Source: Candidatus Omnitrophota bacterium (GTDB lineage Bacteria; Omnitrophota; Gorgyraeia; Zapsychrales; JBAZNR01). Taken from it: a stretch of DNA of 64,000 nt. The position numbers and the translations under genes were made by a program. This document shows, in pieces, positions 2,783-10,736 of the stretch. A model generated the notes under the pieces. The model was not told the origin of the DNA. It did no database searches and was given only the letters and a program-made list of their open reading frames with translations. The stretch is from contig JBAZNR010000001.1 in NCBI GenBank assembly GCA_041649175.1, positions 911,497 to 975,496 on the forward strand, read 5' to 3'. Numbering within the stretch: position 1 is the stretch's first letter; the number at the start of each line of letters is the position of its first letter.

Positions 2783-3772
2783 ATGGACCTGTCAACCAGC
2801 TACATGGGGTTAAAACTTAAAAATCCTTTGGTCGCTTCGGCATCGCCTTTATCCGATAGTGTTGAGAGCATTAAACGCCTGGAAGATAGTGGTATTGCGG
2901 CTGTTGTTAATCATTCTCTTTTTGAAGAACAGCTTTCTCGCGAGGCGAAAGAACTCGACCATCATTTAACGCACGGAACGCAAAGCTATGCTGAATCTCT
3001 TACTTATTTTCCGGAGATGGCCGATTTTTCTTTAGGTCCGGAAGAATATTTGAAACACATCAGCCAGGCCAAGAAAGCTGTTAAAATTCCCATCATCGGA
3101 AGCTTGAACGGCTATACTGACGGCGGCTGGGTCAAATACGCGAAAAATATTCAAGAGGCCGGAGCCGATGCGCTTGAATTGAATATTTATTTTATTCCGA
3201 CGGACGCGGATCTTTCCGGCGTGGATGTGGAAAAACGCTACATTGATATTTTACGGGCTGTTAAATCCAATGTTTCTATCCCGGTGGCGGTTAAGCTTAG
3301 CCCATATTTTAGTTCTATGGCCAATATGGCGAAAAGGCTTGATGAGGCCGGAGCCGATGCCCTTGTTTTATTTAATCGTTTTTATCAGCCCGATATTGAC
3401 CTAGAAACTCTGACGGTTGTTCCTAACGTTTTATTAAGCACGCCTCAGGCGATGCGGCTTCCGCTGCGCTGGATAGCCATTCTTTACGGCCGTCTTAAAG
3501 CAGATTTAGCGGCAACGAGCGGTATCCATCATCCGGAAGATGTCATCAAGATGCTGATGGCAGGAGCAGATGTCGCCATGGTTTGTTCTGTCCTTTTGCG
3601 TAACGGTGTTGATTATACGAAAGATATTTTAAAAGGCATTGAATGGTGGATGAAGGAGCACGAATATGAATCGGTCAAGCAAATGAAGGGAAGTATGAGC
3701 CAGAAATCCTGCGAAAATCCGCAGGCCTTTGAGCGGGCCAATTATATGAAGGCTTTAAAAACGTTTAGATAA
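2783..3772 (+). CDS. Dihydroorotate dehydrogenase (PyrD)-like FMN TIM-barrel protein, possibly non-canonical.
   Basis: It has a PyrD class-1-like N-terminus (LKLKNPLVASASP) and an overall barrel pattern. At the position of the catalytic 'ELNxSCPN' motif the sequence reads ELNIYFIPT, so the Cys/Ser base appears absent. Confidence 0.5.
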   Translation: MDLSTSYMGLKLKNPLVASASPLSDSVESIKRLEDSGIAAVVNHSLFEEQLSREAKELDHHLTHGTQSYAESLTYFPEMADFSLGPEEYLKHISQAKKAVKIPIIGSLNGYTDGGWVKYAKNIQEAGADALELNIYFIPTDADLSGVDVEKRYIDILRAVKSNVSIPVAVKLSPYFSSMANMAKRLDEAGADALVLFNRFYQPDIDLETLTVVPNVLLSTPQAMRLPLRWIAILYGRLKADLAATSGIHHPEDVIKMLMAGADVAMVCSVLLRNGVDYTKDILKGIEWWMKEHEYESVKQMKGSMSQKSCENPQAFERANYMKALKTFR

Positions 3773-3817: not shown

Positions 3818-4327
3818 ATGATGAAAAAGAACATAAAAAATTACGATCTACCAAAAGATGATCCGCGCACAAAAATGATCTTAGCGGCCATCAAAAAAGA
3901 AAGCGGCAAGCCGGACTCACTTATTCAGATCTTGCATACGGCGCAAAACCTATACGGGTATTTACCGATGAATGTCATCGGGTTCATTACCCAGCAATTA
4001 GGAGTTCCGCCGAGCCGTGTTTTTGGGGTCGTAACGTTTTATCATTTTTTCTCATTAAAGCCCAAAGGTGAACACACGTGCTTGGTTTGTACCGGAACTG
4101 CGTGTTACGTCAAAGGTGCGCAAACCATCCTGGAAGAAATTGAGAAGAAGTATTCTTTGAAACCGGGCGAGGTAACGCCCGACAATCATCTGGGCCTTCA
4201 GACAGCGCGCTGTATCGGGGCTTGCGGTTTAGCACCGGCCGTTGTCATTGACGATAATATTGTAGCCAAGGTTAAGCCGGAAGAGGTTGGCGGTATTATT
4301 CATTCAAGGATCGGAGACAAGAAATGA
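3818..4327 (+). CDS. hoxE: Bidirectional [NiFe] hydrogenase diaphorase subunit HoxE (NuoE-like 2Fe-2S thioredoxin-fold protein).
   Basis: NuoE/24-kDa family cysteine pattern (CLVCTGTAC ... CIGACGLAP). It overlaps hoxF by 4 nt. Confidence 0.8.
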   Translation: MMKKNIKNYDLPKDDPRTKMILAAIKKESGKPDSLIQILHTAQNLYGYLPMNVIGFITQQLGVPPSRVFGVVTFYHFFSLKPKGEHTCLVCTGTACYVKGAQTILEEIEKKYSLKPGEVTPDNHLGLQTARCIGACGLAPAVVIDDNIVAKVKPEEVGGIIHSRIGDKK

Positions 4328-5961
4328 ATTTAGAAGAACTTAATAATATTGCGGATAGTGTTAAAAAGAAAAATGACGGATTAAAAAAGAAAGTTTGTGT
4401 TTGTTGCGGCGCGGGCTGTATTTCCTCGGGAAGCGAGGCGGTTTTAAAGAATTTACAGGAAGCCGTCAAATCAAAGAATTTAAGCAATGAAATCAGCGTT
4501 GTTCCGTCGGGATGCATGGGGCCGTGCAATCAAGGGCCTTTGGTCAAAGTGGTTCCCGATCAGACGATCTATCAGAGGATCACCGAAGAAGATGCCGGAA
4601 TTATTTTTGATAAACATGTTCTGCAAAATCAACCTGTCAAAGAAAAGATCCTTTTTTCGGATGTGCGCCAGCAAGCTTTTGTGAATACCAATGACGACCC
4701 GTTCTTTAAAAAGCAGCACAAGATCGTTTTAGAAAATTGCGGCAATATCAACCCGGAAGTCATCGAAGATTATATTGCTGTGGACGGCTATAAAGCTATT
4801 GAGAAAGCTTTGCACTTATCACCGGAGGCCGTGATCGTCGAAATAAAATCAAGCCGTTTGCGCGGCCGCGGCGGCGCCGGTTTTCCGACGGGATTAAAGT
4901 GGGAAACGGTGCATAAATACGTGGCGGATGAAAAATATGTCATTTGCAACGGTGATGAAGGCGATCCGGGCGCTTTTATGGATCGAAGTGTTTTAGAAAG
5001 TGATCCGCATCGTGTTTTGGAAGGGATGATCATTGCCGGATTTGCTATCGGGGCGCAGAGGGGATTTGCCTATATTCGAGGAGAATACCCTTTGGCCATC
5101 AAGCGTTTTGATCAAGCCATCAAGCAAGCCCGCAAGTTAGGGCTTTTGGGCAAGAACATTTTGGGGACGGAATTTAATTTTGATGTGGAAATTCGTATTG
5201 GCGCGGGGGCTTTTGTTTGCGGCGAAGAAACAGCTCTTATTGCCTCTATCGAAGGAAAACGCGGAACTCCGCGTCCACGCCCGCCGTATCCGGCGGAAGC
5301 GGGGCTTTGGGGAAAACCGACGCTCATCAATAATGTGGAAACATTCGCCAATATCGCGCCGATCATTTTACGCGGCGGAGCCTGGTATGGCGCTATCGGA
5401 ACGCCGAAAAGCGCGGGAACAAAAGTGTTTGCCTTAGCGGGAAAAATTAATTTTTCCGGGCTGATCGAAGTTCCCATGGGGACAAGTTTGCGTGAAATTA
5501 TCTTTGATATCGGCGGAGGCATTCCCGGCGGAAAAAAATTTAAAGCGGCGCAAACCGGCGGCCCGTCGGGCGGATGTATTCCGGAACAGCATTTGGATAC
5601 AAAAGTGGATTATGAATCCTTGGTGAGCTTAGGCTCTATTATGGGCTCCGGTGGTCTTATTATTATGGATGAAACATCCAATATGGTGGATGTAGCGCGC
5701 TATTTTATGGAATTTTGTATGGACGAGTCTTGCGGAAAGTGTGTTCCGTGCCGCGCGGGAACAAAACAAATGCATGAGCTTTTATTGAAATTTTGCGCCA
5801 AAAAGGCAACTGATGCCGATATGGCGCTTTTAGAAGAATTAGCGACGTATGTGAAAGAAGCCAGCCTTTGTGGCTTAGGCGCTTCCGCGCCCAATCCTCT
5901 GCTTAGCACATTGCGGTATTTCAAGGACGAATACGCGGCGCAGATCAACAAAAGCTTATAA
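4324..5961 (+). CDS. hoxF: Hydrogenase diaphorase subunit HoxF (NuoF-like, FMN/NAD-binding, Fe-S).
   Basis: N-terminal thioredoxin-like 2Fe-2S (CVCCGAGC), the GRGGAGFPTGLKWE FMN/NADH motif, and a C-terminal 4Fe-4S (CGKCVPCR). Confidence 0.85.
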   Translation: MNLEELNNIADSVKKKNDGLKKKVCVCCGAGCISSGSEAVLKNLQEAVKSKNLSNEISVVPSGCMGPCNQGPLVKVVPDQTIYQRITEEDAGIIFDKHVLQNQPVKEKILFSDVRQQAFVNTNDDPFFKKQHKIVLENCGNINPEVIEDYIAVDGYKAIEKALHLSPEAVIVEIKSSRLRGRGGAGFPTGLKWETVHKYVADEKYVICNGDEGDPGAFMDRSVLESDPHRVLEGMIIAGFAIGAQRGFAYIRGEYPLAIKRFDQAIKQARKLGLLGKNILGTEFNFDVEIRIGAGAFVCGEETALIASIEGKRGTPRPRPPYPAEAGLWGKPTLINNVETFANIAPIILRGGAWYGAIGTPKSAGTKVFALAGKINFSGLIEVPMGTSLREIIFDIGGGIPGGKKFKAAQTGGPSGGCIPEQHLDTKVDYESLVSLGSIMGSGGLIIMDETSNMVDVARYFMEFCMDESCGKCVPCRAGTKQMHELLLKFCAKKATDADMALLEELATYVKEASLCGLGASAPNPLLSTLRYFKDEYAAQINKSL

Positions 5962-5980
5962 ATCTATCGGAATTCTTATT

Positions 5981-7579
5981 ATGAATAAGAAAGTAATTAT
6001 TACAGCGCTGTTATTCGTGATGGGCTGTTTTGCCGTTCATCAAGAATGCGCTTTTGCCAATAACCTTGCGGTCTCCAACGTGACGATGAGTACGCGTGAT
6101 CCGGCTAATGACACTTTTATTTTACAATTCGATGTTTCTTGGAACAATTCTTGGCGCAATAAGATAAATCATGATGCCATTTGGTTTTTTGTCAAAGTGG
6201 ATACCGGCACAGCACCTTATTCCCATTGTTTGATGAAAACTTCCGGTGCTAGTCCCACGGGATTTTCCGCGGGCTCAGATACGAATTTAGCCATTTATGT
6301 CCCATCCGATAAAACGGGAGCATTTTTACGCCCGTCATCTTATAGAGCCATGGGTAGTGTTTCCTCAACCAGTGTCCAGCTCAAGGTAGATTATGGTGCC
6401 AGCAGCTGCAATATTGCGGATACGGCAAGCATTACGCCTTATGTTTACGGCATTGAAATGGTTTATGTTCCGCAGGGAGAATTTTATGTCGGGGATTTTG
6501 CTACAAGTACAAGTAGTTTTAAGCAGGGTTCTGCGGACGACGATCCTTGGTATATTTCCAGCGAAGGAACCTTGCTCACAACCAGCGGAGCATCGGACGG
6601 GTATTATTATGTTGACTCGACAGCAACAGTCGGAGCTGAATTTCTTGACGGTGATATCTTTACCATTCCGGCGGCTTTTCCCAAAGGTTATCAAGCCTTT
6701 TATTGCATGAAATATGAAGTAACCGAAGGACAATACGTTGATTTTATTAATAGCCTTAGTCCGGAAGCGGCAAAAACTCGGGATATTACGGATACCACAG
6801 GAAAGAACTCCGATAGCGTGATTGTGCGCAATACGATCACAATTAATTCGGCAGTTCCGACTGCCACGACCACTCGTTCTGATCGCGCTTTAAACTACAT
6901 CAGCTGGATGGACTTGTCTGCCTATCTTGATTGGGCGGCCCTTCGCCCTATGACAGAATTAGAATATGAAAAAGTTGCCCGCGGCCCGGTTATTCCTGTT
7001 AAGGGAGAGTATGCCTGGGGCACGACGGATATTATTCGCGCTGTTACTATTTCCATTAGCCCCGAAGACGGTACCGAAACTGTAACCACAACCGATGGCA
7101 TAGGAAGGGCATATGTTAATCAGGGAGGTAGGACTTTTAGCCGAGGAGATGTCCATTTGGGAGTGGAGTATACCCGAGGGCCGCTTCGCGTAGGCATTTT
7201 TGCTACGGCAACAGCGGACAGGGTAACAGCAGGAGCCGGTTATTACGGAGCAATGGAGCTTAGCGGTAATGTTTCGGAGATGGTAGTTATTATCGGTAAT
7301 TCTTGGGGAATTACATATACCGGTGGTCATGGAGATGGCGCCTTAACGACGAGCACAACAAATCAAGGCAATGCGAATGTGACAGGGTGGGTATTATTGG
7401 ATCCGGCTGATTCTGCTAGAGGCATCACGGGATATACGGGTTCTGCCGATAGAGGCGATGGATGGACTGCTGCCAGTGGAACAATTTCATATCGCCGCCG
7501 CTATCTTGACAATGTTGGTATGGATGGGATCCCGCGCAAGCATTACATAGGCGGACGCGGTGTAAGAACATACAATTAA
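5981..7579 (+). CDS. Secreted FGE-sulfatase (SUMF1/EgtB/PvdO) domain protein inserted inside the hox operon.
   Basis: Signal peptide (MNKKVIITALLFVMGCFAVHQECAFA). The FGE-domain start MVYVPQGEFYVGD matches MVxIPgGxFxMG, and the motif RPMTELEYEKVARGP...EYAWGT matches LPTEAEWEYAARGG...YPWG. The N-terminal 130 aa have no recognisable family. Confidence 0.6.
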   Translation: MNKKVIITALLFVMGCFAVHQECAFANNLAVSNVTMSTRDPANDTFILQFDVSWNNSWRNKINHDAIWFFVKVDTGTAPYSHCLMKTSGASPTGFSAGSDTNLAIYVPSDKTGAFLRPSSYRAMGSVSSTSVQLKVDYGASSCNIADTASITPYVYGIEMVYVPQGEFYVGDFATSTSSFKQGSADDDPWYISSEGTLLTTSGASDGYYYVDSTATVGAEFLDGDIFTIPAAFPKGYQAFYCMKYEVTEGQYVDFINSLSPEAAKTRDITDTTGKNSDSVIVRNTITINSAVPTATTTRSDRALNYISWMDLSAYLDWAALRPMTELEYEKVARGPVIPVKGEYAWGTTDIIRAVTISISPEDGTETVTTTDGIGRAYVNQGGRTFSRGDVHLGVEYTRGPLRVGIFATATADRVTAGAGYYGAMELSGNVSEMVVIIGNSWGITYTGGHGDGALTTSTTNQGNANVTGWVLLDPADSARGITGYTGSADRGDGWTAASGTISYRRRYLDNVGMDGIPRKHYIGGRGVRTYN

Positions 7580-7625
7580 AGATCAAGGTTTTTAGGAACT
7601 TAAAGAAGCTTAAGGAGGATGGTGA

Positions 7626-8336
7626 ATGCCTGTAAAAATTCCGATCACGATTGACGATAAGCCTATTGAAATTGATTCTGGAAAAACAATTCTGGAGGCA
7701 TGTCGGGAAAACGGCATCGATATCCCGACGATGTGTCACTTGGAAGGGCTTAAAGATGTGGGGGCTTGCCGGATGTGTTTAATTGAGATCGAAGGCATCC
7801 CAAAGCTTTTGCCGTCTTGCACCACAAAACCGGCGCCGAATCAGAAAATAAAAACCCAATCGGAAAAGATCAAGAAATACCGACGGATGACGGTCGAATT
7901 GCTTTTTGCCGAACGTAATCACGTTTGTTCTATTTGTGCCGCCAATAATAATTGCGAGCTTCAGGATTTGGGCTACAAAGTCGGAATGGAACATGTGCGT
8001 TTTCCGTACCTTTTTCCTCAATGCCAAATTGATGCCTCGCACGAAAAATATATCATTGATCATAACCGCTGTATTTTATGTACGCGCTGTGTGCGTGTTT
8101 GCGGCGATATCGAAGGCGCCCATAACTGGAACGTGATGGGGCGCGGATTTCAATCGCGTATTATTTCTGATTTTAATCAGCCCTGGGGCCAATCTACGAC
8201 GTGTACGTCGTGCGGAAAATGCATTGAGGTTTGCCCGACGGGAGCATTATTGCCCAAAGGAATTTTTCAGGGGCAATTAGATAAAACTCCTGAATCAATC
8301 GTTGAACTTGCCAGAAAAAGAAAGATGAGCCTATGA
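7626..8336 (+). CDS. hoxU: Hydrogenase diaphorase subunit HoxU (NuoG N-terminal-like 2Fe-2S/4Fe-4S protein).
   Basis: 2Fe-2S motif CHLEGLKDVGACRMC, followed by CSICAANNNC, CILCTRCVRVC and CTSCGKCIEVCP clusters. Confidence 0.8.
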   Translation: MPVKIPITIDDKPIEIDSGKTILEACRENGIDIPTMCHLEGLKDVGACRMCLIEIEGIPKLLPSCTTKPAPNQKIKTQSEKIKKYRRMTVELLFAERNHVCSICAANNNCELQDLGYKVGMEHVRFPYLFPQCQIDASHEKYIIDHNRCILCTRCVRVCGDIEGAHNWNVMGRGFQSRIISDFNQPWGQSTTCTSCGKCIEVCPTGALLPKGIFQGQLDKTPESIVELARKRKMSL

Positions 8337-8872
8337 ACAAGAAAAAAATTGCGACCGTGTGGTTGGCCGGATGCTCCGGATGTCATATGTCTTTGTTGGA
8401 TATTGATGAACGGATCTTAGATGTCGTGAAATTGGCCGATATTGTCAAAAGCCCTATTGTGGACGGAAAAGAATTTCCGGATGTCGATGTGGCTTTGGTA
8501 GAAGGGTCGGTAGCCAGCGACGAACATTTGCGAGAGATCAAGCATATCCGCGCGCACTCTAAGATCCTTATTTCATTCGGTGATTGCGCGGTAACGGGTA
8601 ATGTGTCGGCGCTAAGGAATTTTATTACTAAGGAAGCGGCTTTAAATCGCGCTTATATTGAGGCGGAAAGTAATGACCAAGGCCTTATCCCTGATTCACC
8701 GGAAATTCAAAAGCTCATTGATCGGGTTTATCCTTTGCACGAAATTGTTAAAGTGGATTATTATATCCCGGGATGCCCTCCATCGGCTGATCTTATCTTT
8801 TATGTGTTAAGCGAGCTTTTGTGTGACCGGGTTCCCAATTTAGAGGAAGGAAGGAAATTGAAATATGGATAA
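8333..8872 (+). CDS. hoxY: [NiFe] hydrogenase small subunit HoxY (NuoB-like).
   Basis: WLAGCSGCHMSLLD proximal-cluster motif. Its size (179 aa) and position directly upstream of the large subunit fit HoxY. Confidence 0.8.
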   Translation: MNKKKIATVWLAGCSGCHMSLLDIDERILDVVKLADIVKSPIVDGKEFPDVDVALVEGSVASDEHLREIKHIRAHSKILISFGDCAVTGNVSALRNFITKEAALNRAYIEAESNDQGLIPDSPEIQKLIDRVYPLHEIVKVDYYIPGCPPSADLIFYVLSELLCDRVPNLEEGRKLKYG

Positions 8873-10292
8873 AAAAATAACCATTAGCCCTGTGACGCGT
8901 ATTGAGGGCCATGCCAAGATCACGATCCAGCTAGGCGAAGACGGGCAAGTTAAAGATGCGCTTTTTCACGTGAATGAATTTCGCGGATTTGAAAAATTCT
9001 GCGAAGGCCGCGTTTATACAGAAATGCCTTCTATCACGCCGCGTATTTGCGGAATTTGTCCCGTGAGCCACGCTGTTTCTAGCGCGAAGGCCTGCGAAAT
9101 GATCATGAAAGTTCAGGTTCCGTATACAGGAACGCTTTTACGGCGCTTGATCCATCTTGGGCAAATGATCTCTTCGCATGCGCTAAGCTTCTTTCATCTT
9201 TCTTCACCGGATTTTCTCTTAGGGTGGGATTCTGACCCCACCACGCGTAACATTGTTGGTTTGGCGGAAAAATTTCCGGATATTGCCAAACGCGGAATCC
9301 GTTTGCGCAAATTTGGCCAGGAGATCAGTGAACGGCTGACGGGCAAAAAAGTCCATATTATGGGTATTATCGCCGGAGGATTTTCTTATCCACTGGAAGA
9401 AGCTAATCGCAAAGCACTTTTAGAATGGATCCCGGAAGCGCTAGAGACAACTAAGATCGGCATTGATATTTTTAAGAAGTATTACGCGCAAAATAAAAAA
9501 GAAGTTGAATCGTTCGCTAATTTTGAAACATTGCACTTGGGAACTGTTGGGCCCGACGGTGAATTGGAATTATACGACGGTAAACTGCGCTATGTGGATG
9601 CCCATGGAAAAATGTTAGCCGATCAACTTGATCCCAAAAACTATCTTGATTTTATTGCCGAGCGCCCTATTGCTTGGTCGTATTTAAAGTATCCGTATTA
9701 TAAACCGGCCGGTTATCCGCAAGGATTTTACCGTGTCGGGCCTTTGGCGCGGCTTAATGTGGCTTCAAAAATGAAAACGCCTTTAGCTCAAGCCGAGTTT
9801 AAAAATTACAAAGATTTGGGCCGCGGCAAACCGCTCAATGGTTCTTTTTATTTTCATTACGCGCGGCTCATTGAAACCTTAGGATGTATTGAAGAAGCGC
9901 GAGATATTCTTAATGATCCTAAAATCCTTTCGACAGAAATTCAGGCCGTTGCCTCACGCAATCAATCGGAGGGCGTGGGCTGTTCTGAGGCGCCGCGTGG
10001 AACATTGTTCCATCATTATAAAACCGATGATAACGGTGTGTTGACCAAGGTCAATCTTTTGATCGCTACGGGTCAGAATAATCCGGCGATGAACCGCTCA
10101 GTTTTAGAAGTTGCCAAACAATACGTTAAGGGAAGCGATGTGAAAGAAGGGGCTTTAAACCGGGTTGAGGCGGCTATTCGCTGTTATGATCCGTGCCTTT
10201 CTTGCTCGACGCATGCCATCGGCGCTATGCCGCTGATCGTGGAGATCCATGACCATCAAGGAAGAATTTTAAATTCTATCAAACGGGGATAA
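8865..10292 (+). CDS. hoxH: [NiFe] hydrogenase large subunit HoxH.
   Basis: N-terminal RICGICPVSH (RxCGxCxxxH) and C-terminal DPCLSCSTHAIG (DPCxxCxxH) Ni-Fe ligand motifs. Confidence 0.9.
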   Translation: MDKKITISPVTRIEGHAKITIQLGEDGQVKDALFHVNEFRGFEKFCEGRVYTEMPSITPRICGICPVSHAVSSAKACEMIMKVQVPYTGTLLRRLIHLGQMISSHALSFFHLSSPDFLLGWDSDPTTRNIVGLAEKFPDIAKRGIRLRKFGQEISERLTGKKVHIMGIIAGGFSYPLEEANRKALLEWIPEALETTKIGIDIFKKYYAQNKKEVESFANFETLHLGTVGPDGELELYDGKLRYVDAHGKMLADQLDPKNYLDFIAERPIAWSYLKYPYYKPAGYPQGFYRVGPLARLNVASKMKTPLAQAEFKNYKDLGRGKPLNGSFYFHYARLIETLGCIEEARDILNDPKILSTEIQAVASRNQSEGVGCSEAPRGTLFHHYKTDDNGVLTKVNLLIATGQNNPAMNRSVLEVAKQYVKGSDVKEGALNRVEAAIRCYDPCLSCSTHAIGAMPLIVEIHDHQGRILNSIKRG

Positions 10293-10736
10293 ATGATCTG
10301 TCTCATTGGCTACGGAAATAATATGCGTTCGGATGACGGTATAGGAATTTATGTGGCGCAGAAAATTGCCGCGGAAAATAATCCGAATGTCAAAGTTTGC
10401 GTATCTCATCAACTGCACATTGAAATGCTGGAAGAAGCGGTTTTGTATGATAAGGTCATTTTAGTGGATGCGGCGGCTGGCGGAGAAGAAGTTGTCTTTC
10501 GAAAAGTGGATGCCGGCTCAAAAGCTTACGTTGCTTCGTCGCATCATTTAAGCCCGGAACTTTTCTTCAATCTGGCTGAAAAAATCTACAGAAAAAATAT
10601 CAATCTTTACGCGTGTTCGATTAAAGGAGAGTCGTTTGAGCTTGGGAACACGATCTCTCCGATCGTTTACACACGCGCAGAAAAATCCATTGACCTTATC
10701 CATTCTTTGATCAATAAGGATCTTGTTTATGCATGA
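10293..10736 (+). CDS. hoxW: Hydrogenase maturation endopeptidase (HoxW/HyaD family).
   Basis: MICLIGYGNNMRSDDGIGIYVA, the N-terminal signature of hydrogenase maturation proteases. It sits immediately after hoxH. Confidence 0.8.
   Translation: MICLIGYGNNMRSDDGIGIYVAQKIAAENNPNVKVCVSHQLHIEMLEEAVLYDKVILVDAAAGGEEVVFRKVDAGSKAYVASSHHLSPELFFNLAEKIYRKNINLYACSIKGESFELGNTISPIVYTRAEKSIDLIHSLINKDLVYA

Follow-up and report, generated by a model that had tools for sequence, protein, structure and literature searches.

A gene for a putatively secreted lectin-fold protein between hoxF and hoxU in the bidirectional hydrogenase operon of an Omnitrophota bacterium

Introduction

Genes without a demonstrated role in hydrogenase function have been described at the junction of hoxF and hoxU in the bidirectional [NiFe] hydrogenase operons of cyanobacteria: sll1222 occupies this position in Synechocystis (PMC3933540), and Lyngbya and Arthrospira possess the co-transcribed arrangement hoxEF-hcp-hoxUYH (PMC2674450). 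Here we describe a gene at the same junction in Candidatus Omnitrophota bacterium (assembly GCA_041649175.1). It lies in a stretch of 64,000 nucleotides of contig JBAZNR010000001.1 (positions 911,497 to 975,496 of the forward strand), hereafter the window, whose coordinates are used unless a locus is named. The gene, ORF532 (5981–7579, + strand), is an open reading frame (ORF) of 532 amino acids encoding a putatively exported protein of two domains, a beta-sandwich followed by a C-type-lectin/formylglycine-generating enzyme (FGE) fold. It is missing from related hox operons, and its sister gene resides in a secretin locus on the same contig. We consider it likely that ORF532 represents an additional copy, confined to this lineage, of a secreted protein that belongs to the standard cell-surface machinery of Omnitrophota, and that it is carried as a passenger of the hox operon and is not a component of the hydrogenase.

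In Omnitrophota, type II secretion-like genes are associated with giant genes, and the resulting secretin/giant-gene loci have been read as attachment or predation machinery (10.1101/2023.11.21.568195). An FGE- or sulfatase-type or lectin-fold component goes unmentioned both there and in a 2026 preprint on Omnitrophota. The variable regions of diversity-generating retroelements (DGRs) are systematically carried on C-type-lectin folds (PMC8144416).

ORF532 encodes a putatively secreted two-domain protein

ORF532 begins with ATG and has the orientation of its neighbours, with only 19 bp separating it from the hoxF stop (5962–5980) and 46 bp from the hoxU start (7580–7625); the orientation and short gaps agree with a first-pass annotation of the window. 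Since a protein search returned 4,727 homologues at E≤0.001 among 8,000 scored, mostly full length, we take it to be a real gene and not a chance ORF. Nearly all of the best 120 homologues are ~520–570 amino acids long, share 45–53% identity over 95–100% of the query and derive from Omnitrophota or Omnitrophica wherever a source is named.

The predicted Sec-type signal peptide (residues 1–26; 5981–6058) shows the expected n-, h- and c-region anatomy: MNKK leads into a hydrophobic stretch of 15 residues (Kyte-Doolittle mean 2.8), with a cleavage site between AFA and NN. Across 100 homologues the sequence is hypervariable ahead of Ala26, while positions Ala26, Asn27, Asn28 and Leu29 show little or no variation. 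The mature N-terminal domain (residues 27–165; 6059–6475) yielded no Pfam match over its 139 residues even at E≤1. Its two cysteines, Cys83 and Cys143, are conserved in 86% and 82% of family members, respectively; if paired in a disulfide, they would suit a protein that is exported. An AF2 model built on the family alignment (pLDDT 91.1, pTM 0.91) has a helix at residues 3–19, a beta-sandwich at ~30–163 and a mixed alpha/beta domain extending to the C-terminus.

This last domain (residues 166–532; 6476–7576) has a core (residues 238–349; 6692–7027) that scores 40.8 bits against Pfam FGE-sulfatase, PF03781 (gathering cut-off 23.3), covering only positions 35–136 of the 255 in the profile. The Foldseek search matched the model to bacterial FGEs and the selenoxide synthase OvsA with E-values of 5.6e-07 to 1e-04; the FGE targets, which include 6XTQ, 5NYY, 6MUJ and 2Q17, align at a TM-score of ~0.5 with 14–15% identity. 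By sequence, ~55 residues match solved FGEs (E ~1e-06), and the central motif RP..SW.D...W...R..TE.E.E...RG is common to both. An hhalign comparison with an approximate sequence of human FGE gave a probability of 92% over the conserved core only and did not reach the catalytic segment. The C-terminal 115 residues returned only chance RuvB-like matches among PDB sequences, and a viral structure library contained no match to ORF532 at E≤0.001. The signal peptide and novel N-terminal region of the first-pass annotation are therefore borne out, and of its FGE/SUMF1-like assignment the fold and the Pfam domain, the latter as a partial profile, are retained; the enzyme is not, there being no cysteine after residue 242.

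The insertion is absent from related hox operons

Both flanking genes are intact. hoxF (4324–5961, +), for the NAD(P)H/FMN-binding diaphorase subunit (Complex1_51K and NADH_4Fe-4S), is alignable with its relatives across residues 1–542 of 545, and hoxU (7626–8336, +) matches the NCBIfam HoxU equivalog NF005745 at 361.5 bits (cut-off 333). The ORF532–hoxU spacer contains the ribosome-binding site of hoxU, AAGGAGGA, which is a strong Shine-Dalgarno sequence, so that ORF532 is placed after the hoxF stop and ahead of this site; relatives have GGGAG(G) at the corresponding position. The hoxF–ORF532 spacer lacks a strong Shine-Dalgarno sequence, and the ORF532 leader is weak, of the type GGA-N9-10-ATG. 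When the + strand of the two spacers was scanned, nothing resembling a terminator or promoter was found, and neither spacer had an Rfam match. Because ORF532 lacks a promoter and terminator of its own, its transcription is most likely that of a passenger read with the hox genes, and co-transcription, as the first-pass annotation presumed, is probable from this arrangement.

A genome scan with HoxU identified 80 loci. In the eight closest (L004–L011; HoxU 60–68% identical) the hoxF–hoxU gap is 29–123 bp and contains no insert; L005 has the full order PFOR-DHODH-hoxEFUYHW-hypA, and most of the other seven keep at least hoxEFUYHW. The three loci with the closest HoxF (L163–L165; 80–82% identical, among 5.8 billion sequences) show this same gene order, with hoxF–hoxU gaps of 25, 19 and 86 bp. 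hoxF and hoxU are thus adjacent in all 11 of the closest hox operons. The absence is reciprocal: an ORF532-family gene occurs at none of the 80 HoxU-type loci, and hox, PFOR or hyp genes occur at none of 82 family loci. From these two lines of evidence we conclude that the insertion is lineage-specific, and the comparison dates it after the split from relatives with ~80% HoxF identity. This synteny comparison had been named beforehand as the refutation test for the first-pass annotation, and its outcome is that of a lineage-specific insertion. One metagenome-assembled genome (MAG) contains both a secretin cluster with family genes (L003) and a hox operon (L005), so that organism has both systems, unlinked.

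The expectation that hoxEF and hoxUYH are contiguous holds among these relatives but not in certain cyanobacteria, where sll1222, hcp or a nitroreductase-family ORF stands at the junction. The last of these, of 354 amino acids, fills the hoxF–hoxU gap of Spirulina subsalsa FACHB-351 (L015 5863–6927). It and hcp presumably belong to families of cytoplasmic redox enzymes; the function of sll1222 is unknown. Like ORF532, the cyanobacterial passengers are unrelated genes placed at exactly this junction on the same strand, without a demonstrated hydrogenase role. They differ from it in being other proteins in another phylum, whereas ORF532 is a predicted exported binding protein. With ORF532 these cases gain a further passenger, a predicted exported protein of lectin fold, from a phylum not represented before.

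The sister gene resides in a secretin/giant-protein locus

The closest non-self homologue of ORF532 is P0002, 65% identical and encoded on the same contig, which is 1,225,647 bp long and also recorded at ENA as ERZ27247363 k141_2258133; the protein collection contained no orthologue above this identity. In neighbour-joining trees of 40 members, ORF532 and P0002 are sisters in 200 of 200 bootstraps for the N-domain and 197 of 200 for the C-domain, which argues for duplication within the lineage and not import. The composition of ORF532 is native (codon-use z −1.3, GC z +1.5), and with GC, GC3 and codon-use z-scores all within ±1.5 a foreign origin was rejected; the codon-usage and GC check proposed in the first-pass annotation gave no foreign sign.

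P0002 lies in a secretin cluster (L001 3508–15513), and the loci of P0002 and two close homologues (L001, L002 and L003) have one common gene order. The 5′ part encodes an S41 peptidase, GT2, DUF2304, a methyltransferase and GT2. The core follows with an AAA_22 (ExeA/MshM-like) ATPase, a T2SSC-like protein, a secretin, a TPR protein, one or two family genes and a giant ORF; the giant ORFs that follow family genes range from 1,369 to more than 6,900 amino acids. A metagenome scan added 79 further family loci, bringing the total to 82. Of the family loci, 37 span 7 kb or more, and 18 of these have the secretin cluster, including almost all of those with at least 42% identity to ORF532; beyond L001 these clusters were found at L002, L003, L085, L088, L090, L092–L094, L097, L102, L105, L106, L108, L112, L116, L118 and L132. 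GT2, DUF2304, methyltransferase and GT2 genes usually stand 5′ of the cluster. More distant family copies are scattered beside housekeeping genes, such as ptsP-like, prfC and cysS.

In relation to the type II secretion-like locus described for Omnitrophota (10.1101/2023.11.21.568195), the sister and close homologues of ORF532 sit between the secretin/TPR pair and the giant ORF, whereas ORF532 itself is far from that cluster and lacks the secretin, TPR and giant-ORF setting. By sequence ORF532 has the full-length homology of the type found at the first position of the secretin cluster (46–65% identity over 95–100% of the length), with the conserved ANNL at the mature N-terminus and GGRGVRTY at the C-terminus, and it retains all 47 invariant columns of the family. 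The family looks like a non-catalytic secreted lectin-fold protein that has been misnamed an iron enzyme.

The insertion is old and ORF532 has remained under selection

The relationship between ORF532 and P0002 is mosaic. Their N-domains (6059–6475 and L001 8148–8560) are 90% identical, a corrected distance of 0.12, whereas their C-domains are ~56% identical (0.61); distances to other family members are about equal for the two domains (N 0.81, C 0.74). NG86 estimates for the pair are dN 0.05, dS 1.19 and dN/dS ~0.04 in the N-domain, and dN 0.36 with saturated dS in the C-domain; in the best-conserved part of the pair dS is ~0.9–1.2. This pattern suggests either 5′ gene conversion after an older duplication or strong constraint on the N-domain while the C-domains diverged. 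On either account the insertion is not recent and purifying selection has acted since: it is old, and ORF532 is still under purifying selection. The first-pass suggestion of a recent insertion is thus correct as to insertion and incorrect as to age.

DNA similarity between ORF532 and P0002 starts at the first mature codon (6056), and the flanks are unrelated. Comparison of the paralogue flanks and a search for repeats at the insert edges identified no convincing insertion scar. A 7-nt AAGCTTA present at both edges (5953–5959 and 7607–7613) and a 13-nt inverted repeat, 12/13 complementary, between the upstream spacer and the hoxU start (5966–5978 and 7633–7645) were rejected as scars, being at chance level (~1.4 such pairs expected in 2.2 kb).

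Persistence of this kind could also mean that the insertion was kept because the binding protein is useful together with the Hox hydrogenase, for example as an adhesin displayed during fermentation with H2 release or use, allowing attachment to a H2-exchanging partner or prey. An intact gene under purifying selection long after insertion, without a promoter of its own, fits such adaptive co-regulation, as does a C-domain that has strongly diverged from that of P0002 while the N-domain is still 90% identical, and the published reading of secretin/giant loci as attachment or predation machinery (10.1101/2023.11.21.568195) points the same way. However, the arrangement is confined to a single genome among those compared, the link is shared by none of the other hox operons or family members, and a useful gene is equally expected to be retained wherever it lands. 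We therefore regard co-regulation, although the chief alternative of interest to a passenger, as unlikely to be the reason for its retention.

Distant homologues are targets of diversity-generating retroelements

Distant family members, 36–43% identical to ORF532, lie in complete DGR cassettes at four loci (L127 7935–11458; L103 1192–4599; L144 165–3655; L145 831–4459), where a gene for a reverse transcriptase (RT; RVT_1) comes after the family gene. The target, the RT and a template repeat (TR) are present at all four, and a bAvd-like gene (PF22296, above the cut-off of 40) at three. At each locus the final ~45 codons of the family gene are repeated near the RT, giving a pair of variable region (VR) and TR that is 128–156 nt long. 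Of 64 mismatches between VR and TR, 58 are at an adenine in the TR (18/20, 16/16, 9/10 and 15/18 by locus) and none at an adenine in the VR; such adenine-specific mismatches are the signature of a DGR. Because the VR ends in GGRGVR or GFRAVR and ORF532 ends in GGRGVRTYN, the VR corresponds to residues ~485–532 of ORF532 (7433–7576, +). Among its relatives, the fold of ORF532 thus serves as a ligand-binding surface open to diversification.

Downstream (3′) of the DGR cassette in L103, positions 6136–9358 contain about seven repeated units spaced at 285–300 nt or rough multiples thereof, an array that probably codes for a series of Ig-like domains in a large surface protein.

Treponema denticola TvpA, reportedly described by Le Coq and Ghosh in 2011 (cited in PMC8144416) as a DGR variable protein with a C-type-lectin fold, is one that we take to represent the FGE-type subclass of that fold. 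Like ORF532, DGR variable proteins of this kind are secreted and end in an FGE/C-lectin fold, preceded by an N-domain that differs; TvpA is not among the top Foldseek matches of ORF532. ORF532 is unlike them in that no RT or Avd gene or TR lies near it in the 64-kb window.

ORF532 might still be an active remote target of a DGR elsewhere in the genome, which would explain its diverged C-terminus: the VR of its distant relatives falls in the homologous C-terminal ~45 residues, and this segment is the most diverged part of ORF532. Against this, the window contains neither an RT homologue nor a second copy of 7101–7600 that could serve as TR, and the 3′ side of ORF532 lacks the GC-rich extension beyond the stop that is seen in the VR/TR pairs. 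The divergence between ORF532 and P0002 spans the whole 367-residue domain, including indels, and five 90%-identity clusters of the close clade differ along the whole protein, with no VR-restricted variation. The best 120 of 6,063 matches to an RT profile include none on this contig, a weak negative that says little given the total. Remote diversification of ORF532 is very unlikely.

Divergence from the family is shared with the sister gene

ORF532 is the most divergent of 100 aligned family members, keeping a fraction of 0.833 of 186 conserved columns where the members other than it and P0002 keep 95.6 ± 3.2%, and with its weak ribosome-binding site it could be taken for a decaying, functionless duplicate tolerated in the operon. 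Yet P0002, in its canonical cluster, is the second most divergent (0.839) and has the same weak leader. Of the 31 positions at which ORF532 deviates, 20 are also off the consensus in P0002, frequently through another residue, and the Cys288/Cys295 pair and RLRISDR motif are missing from both proteins. As P0002 is equally divergent and most of the deviating positions are shared, the divergence belongs to the lineage and does not reflect decay of the hox copy. An ORF that is intact and full length despite a dS of at least 1 since duplication, an N-domain dN/dS of ~0.04 and retention of 47 of 47 invariant columns also speak against decay, which we judge highly unlikely.

Neither a hydrogenase accessory nor an FGE-type enzyme is indicated

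The first-pass annotation offered, as an alternative to insertion, a functionally linked, unrecognised accessory. Position within the operon, on the same strand and with short gaps, would suit an accessory or maturation factor of the bidirectional hydrogenase. The gene is nevertheless absent from the 11 closest hox operons and from all 80 HoxU-type loci, and none of the 82 family loci has hox genes; the usual neighbours of the family are instead a secretin, a TPR protein and giant proteins. Moreover, the export signal and the conserved Cys83 and Cys143, which fit an extracytoplasmic disulfide, are at odds with the cytoplasmic location of Hox. An accessory role is therefore most improbable.

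FGE binds its catalytic copper through two cysteines, and EgtB, OvsA and SenA have their iron site in an N-terminal DinB domain. ORF532 shares the overall fold and central motif of FGE (SUMF1; bacterial structures 6S07, 6MUJ and 2Q17) and differs from it in having an extra N-terminal beta-sandwich and long insertions in the domain, in the missing copper cysteine pair and sulfatase neighbour, and in the low identity of 14–15%. Its top PDB structure matches are copper complexes, but its only cysteines are at positions 16, 23, 83, 143 and 242, with none in 243–532, and the family alignment has no column with at least 30% cysteine beyond position 295. An aerobic, copper-dependent FGE of the SUMF1 type is thus contradicted by the absence of the Cu(I)-binding cysteine pair from the C-terminal segment; the inspection of the copper site proposed in the first-pass annotation found no such pair. 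No sulfatase substrate gene (PF00884) was found among the ~40 window ORFs scanned with Pfam, a set that omits a few small ORFs. A synthase of the EgtB/OvsA/SenA type was rejected on the modelled beta-sandwich, which takes the place of DinB, and on the score against SenA, the only NCBIfam match of ORF532 (15.6 bits, cut-off 420). An FGE-like lipoprotein of the type IX secretion system (GldJ/GldK/PorK) was rejected for lack of a conserved signal-peptide cysteine (lipobox); the GldJ and GldK models gave no NCBIfam match to ORF532 at E≤0.01, and no gldLMN-type genes lie beside family genes at the three secretin-cluster loci examined.

A true FGE or other FGE-fold enzyme accordingly has next to no likelihood: a PF03781 score above threshold, best structural matches to FGEs and OvsA, and the database name 'SUMF1/EgtB/PvdO family nonheme iron enzyme' are set against a sequence match confined to the central ~55–110 residues and a family whose C-terminal half has no conserved cysteine or histidine cluster. 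That name is a fold label, not a function.

The hox cluster and other features of the window

ORF532 interrupts an otherwise complete PFOR-hoxEFUYHW-hyp cluster, encoded on the + strand. The cluster starts with PFOR (nifJ-type; 12–2762), followed by a dihydroorotate-dehydrogenase-like (DHODH) gene (2783–3772) and by hoxE (3818–4327), for the diaphorase 2Fe-2S subunit (PF01257, E 5.4e-46; orthologues in relatives are 63–71% identical). Beyond hoxU are hoxY (8333–8872; Oxidored_q6), for the [NiFe] small subunit, hoxH (8865–10292; NiFeSe_Hases), for the large subunit and with orthologues in relatives tagged PF27537:HoxH, and the maturation protease gene hoxW (10293–10736; TIGR00072), with hypA, hypF, hypC, hypD and hypE downstream.

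PFOR and the DHODH-like gene also lie directly 5′ of hoxE in L005, L026, L163 and L164. This linkage suggests a conserved unit that connects pyruvate with H2 by way of ferredoxin or NAD(P)H. The operon is also as close to those of MAGs labelled Bacteroidota (HoxU 64–68%, HoxF 70–79%) as to those of its own relatives: L006, L008 and L009 are labelled Chitinophagaceae, Niabella and Sphingobacteriales, and many of the best HoxF matches are named Chitinophagaceae, Lacibacter or Ferruginibacter. This suggests interphylum transfer of the hox operon or mislabelled bins.

Elsewhere in the window, positions 40586–40669 (+) contain a c-di-GMP-I riboswitch (RF01051; 63.4 bits against a gathering score of 35) that precedes by ~100 nt an ORF (40767–45848) for a protein of 1,693 amino acids with Peptidase_C25, CARDB, PKD/K319L-like, Big_9 and cadherin-like domains. 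This large secreted protease or adhesin may be under c-di-GMP control.

Discussion

A passenger derived from the secretin cluster would account for ORF532 as follows. A gene copy from that cluster would have become inserted after the hoxF stop and ahead of the hoxU ribosome-binding site, sparing both genes, and would be read through from the hox promoter. The product would be exported by Sec and cleaved after Ala26. Its C-domain has lost FGE chemistry, or never had it, and may act as a ligand-binding module whose binding face is marked by the last ~45 residues, those varied by DGRs in distant homologues. The N-domain, nearly identical to that of P0002, may dock to the same partner, while the much-diverged C-domain would confer a different binding specificity. 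The protein would take no part in hydrogenase assembly or catalysis.

Several considerations weigh against this account. Ligand binding is argued from the fold and from DGR-linked relatives; co-transcription and export are read from the anatomy of the gene and its product. Given their shared divergence, ORF532 and P0002 may not function as is typical of the family. Even the nearest hox operon sampled reaches no more than 82% HoxF identity, which bounds the time of insertion poorly, and a gene that selection has kept within an operon might nonetheless be adaptive because it is co-regulated. A further step, in which regulation was rewired by evolution so that the hox-embedded adhesin paralogue is displayed only when the NAD(P)-linked hydrogenase is expressed, in an ultra-small and probably host-dependent bacterium, is in our view rather improbable; if true, it would couple attachment to a partner or prey with hydrogen and redox metabolism.

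On the passenger account the insertion matters little for hydrogenase biology, beyond showing once more that the hoxF–hoxU junction tolerates passenger genes, and ORF532 should not be annotated as a hox accessory, as a formylglycine-generating enzyme or as a 'nonheme iron' enzyme. The family-level lead outweighs the hox insertion itself as a subject worth following. The family is tied to secretin/giant loci and related to retroelement-diversified binding proteins, which makes it a concrete candidate for the specificity factor of the secretin/giant-protein machinery that is thought to mediate attachment or predation in Omnitrophota.

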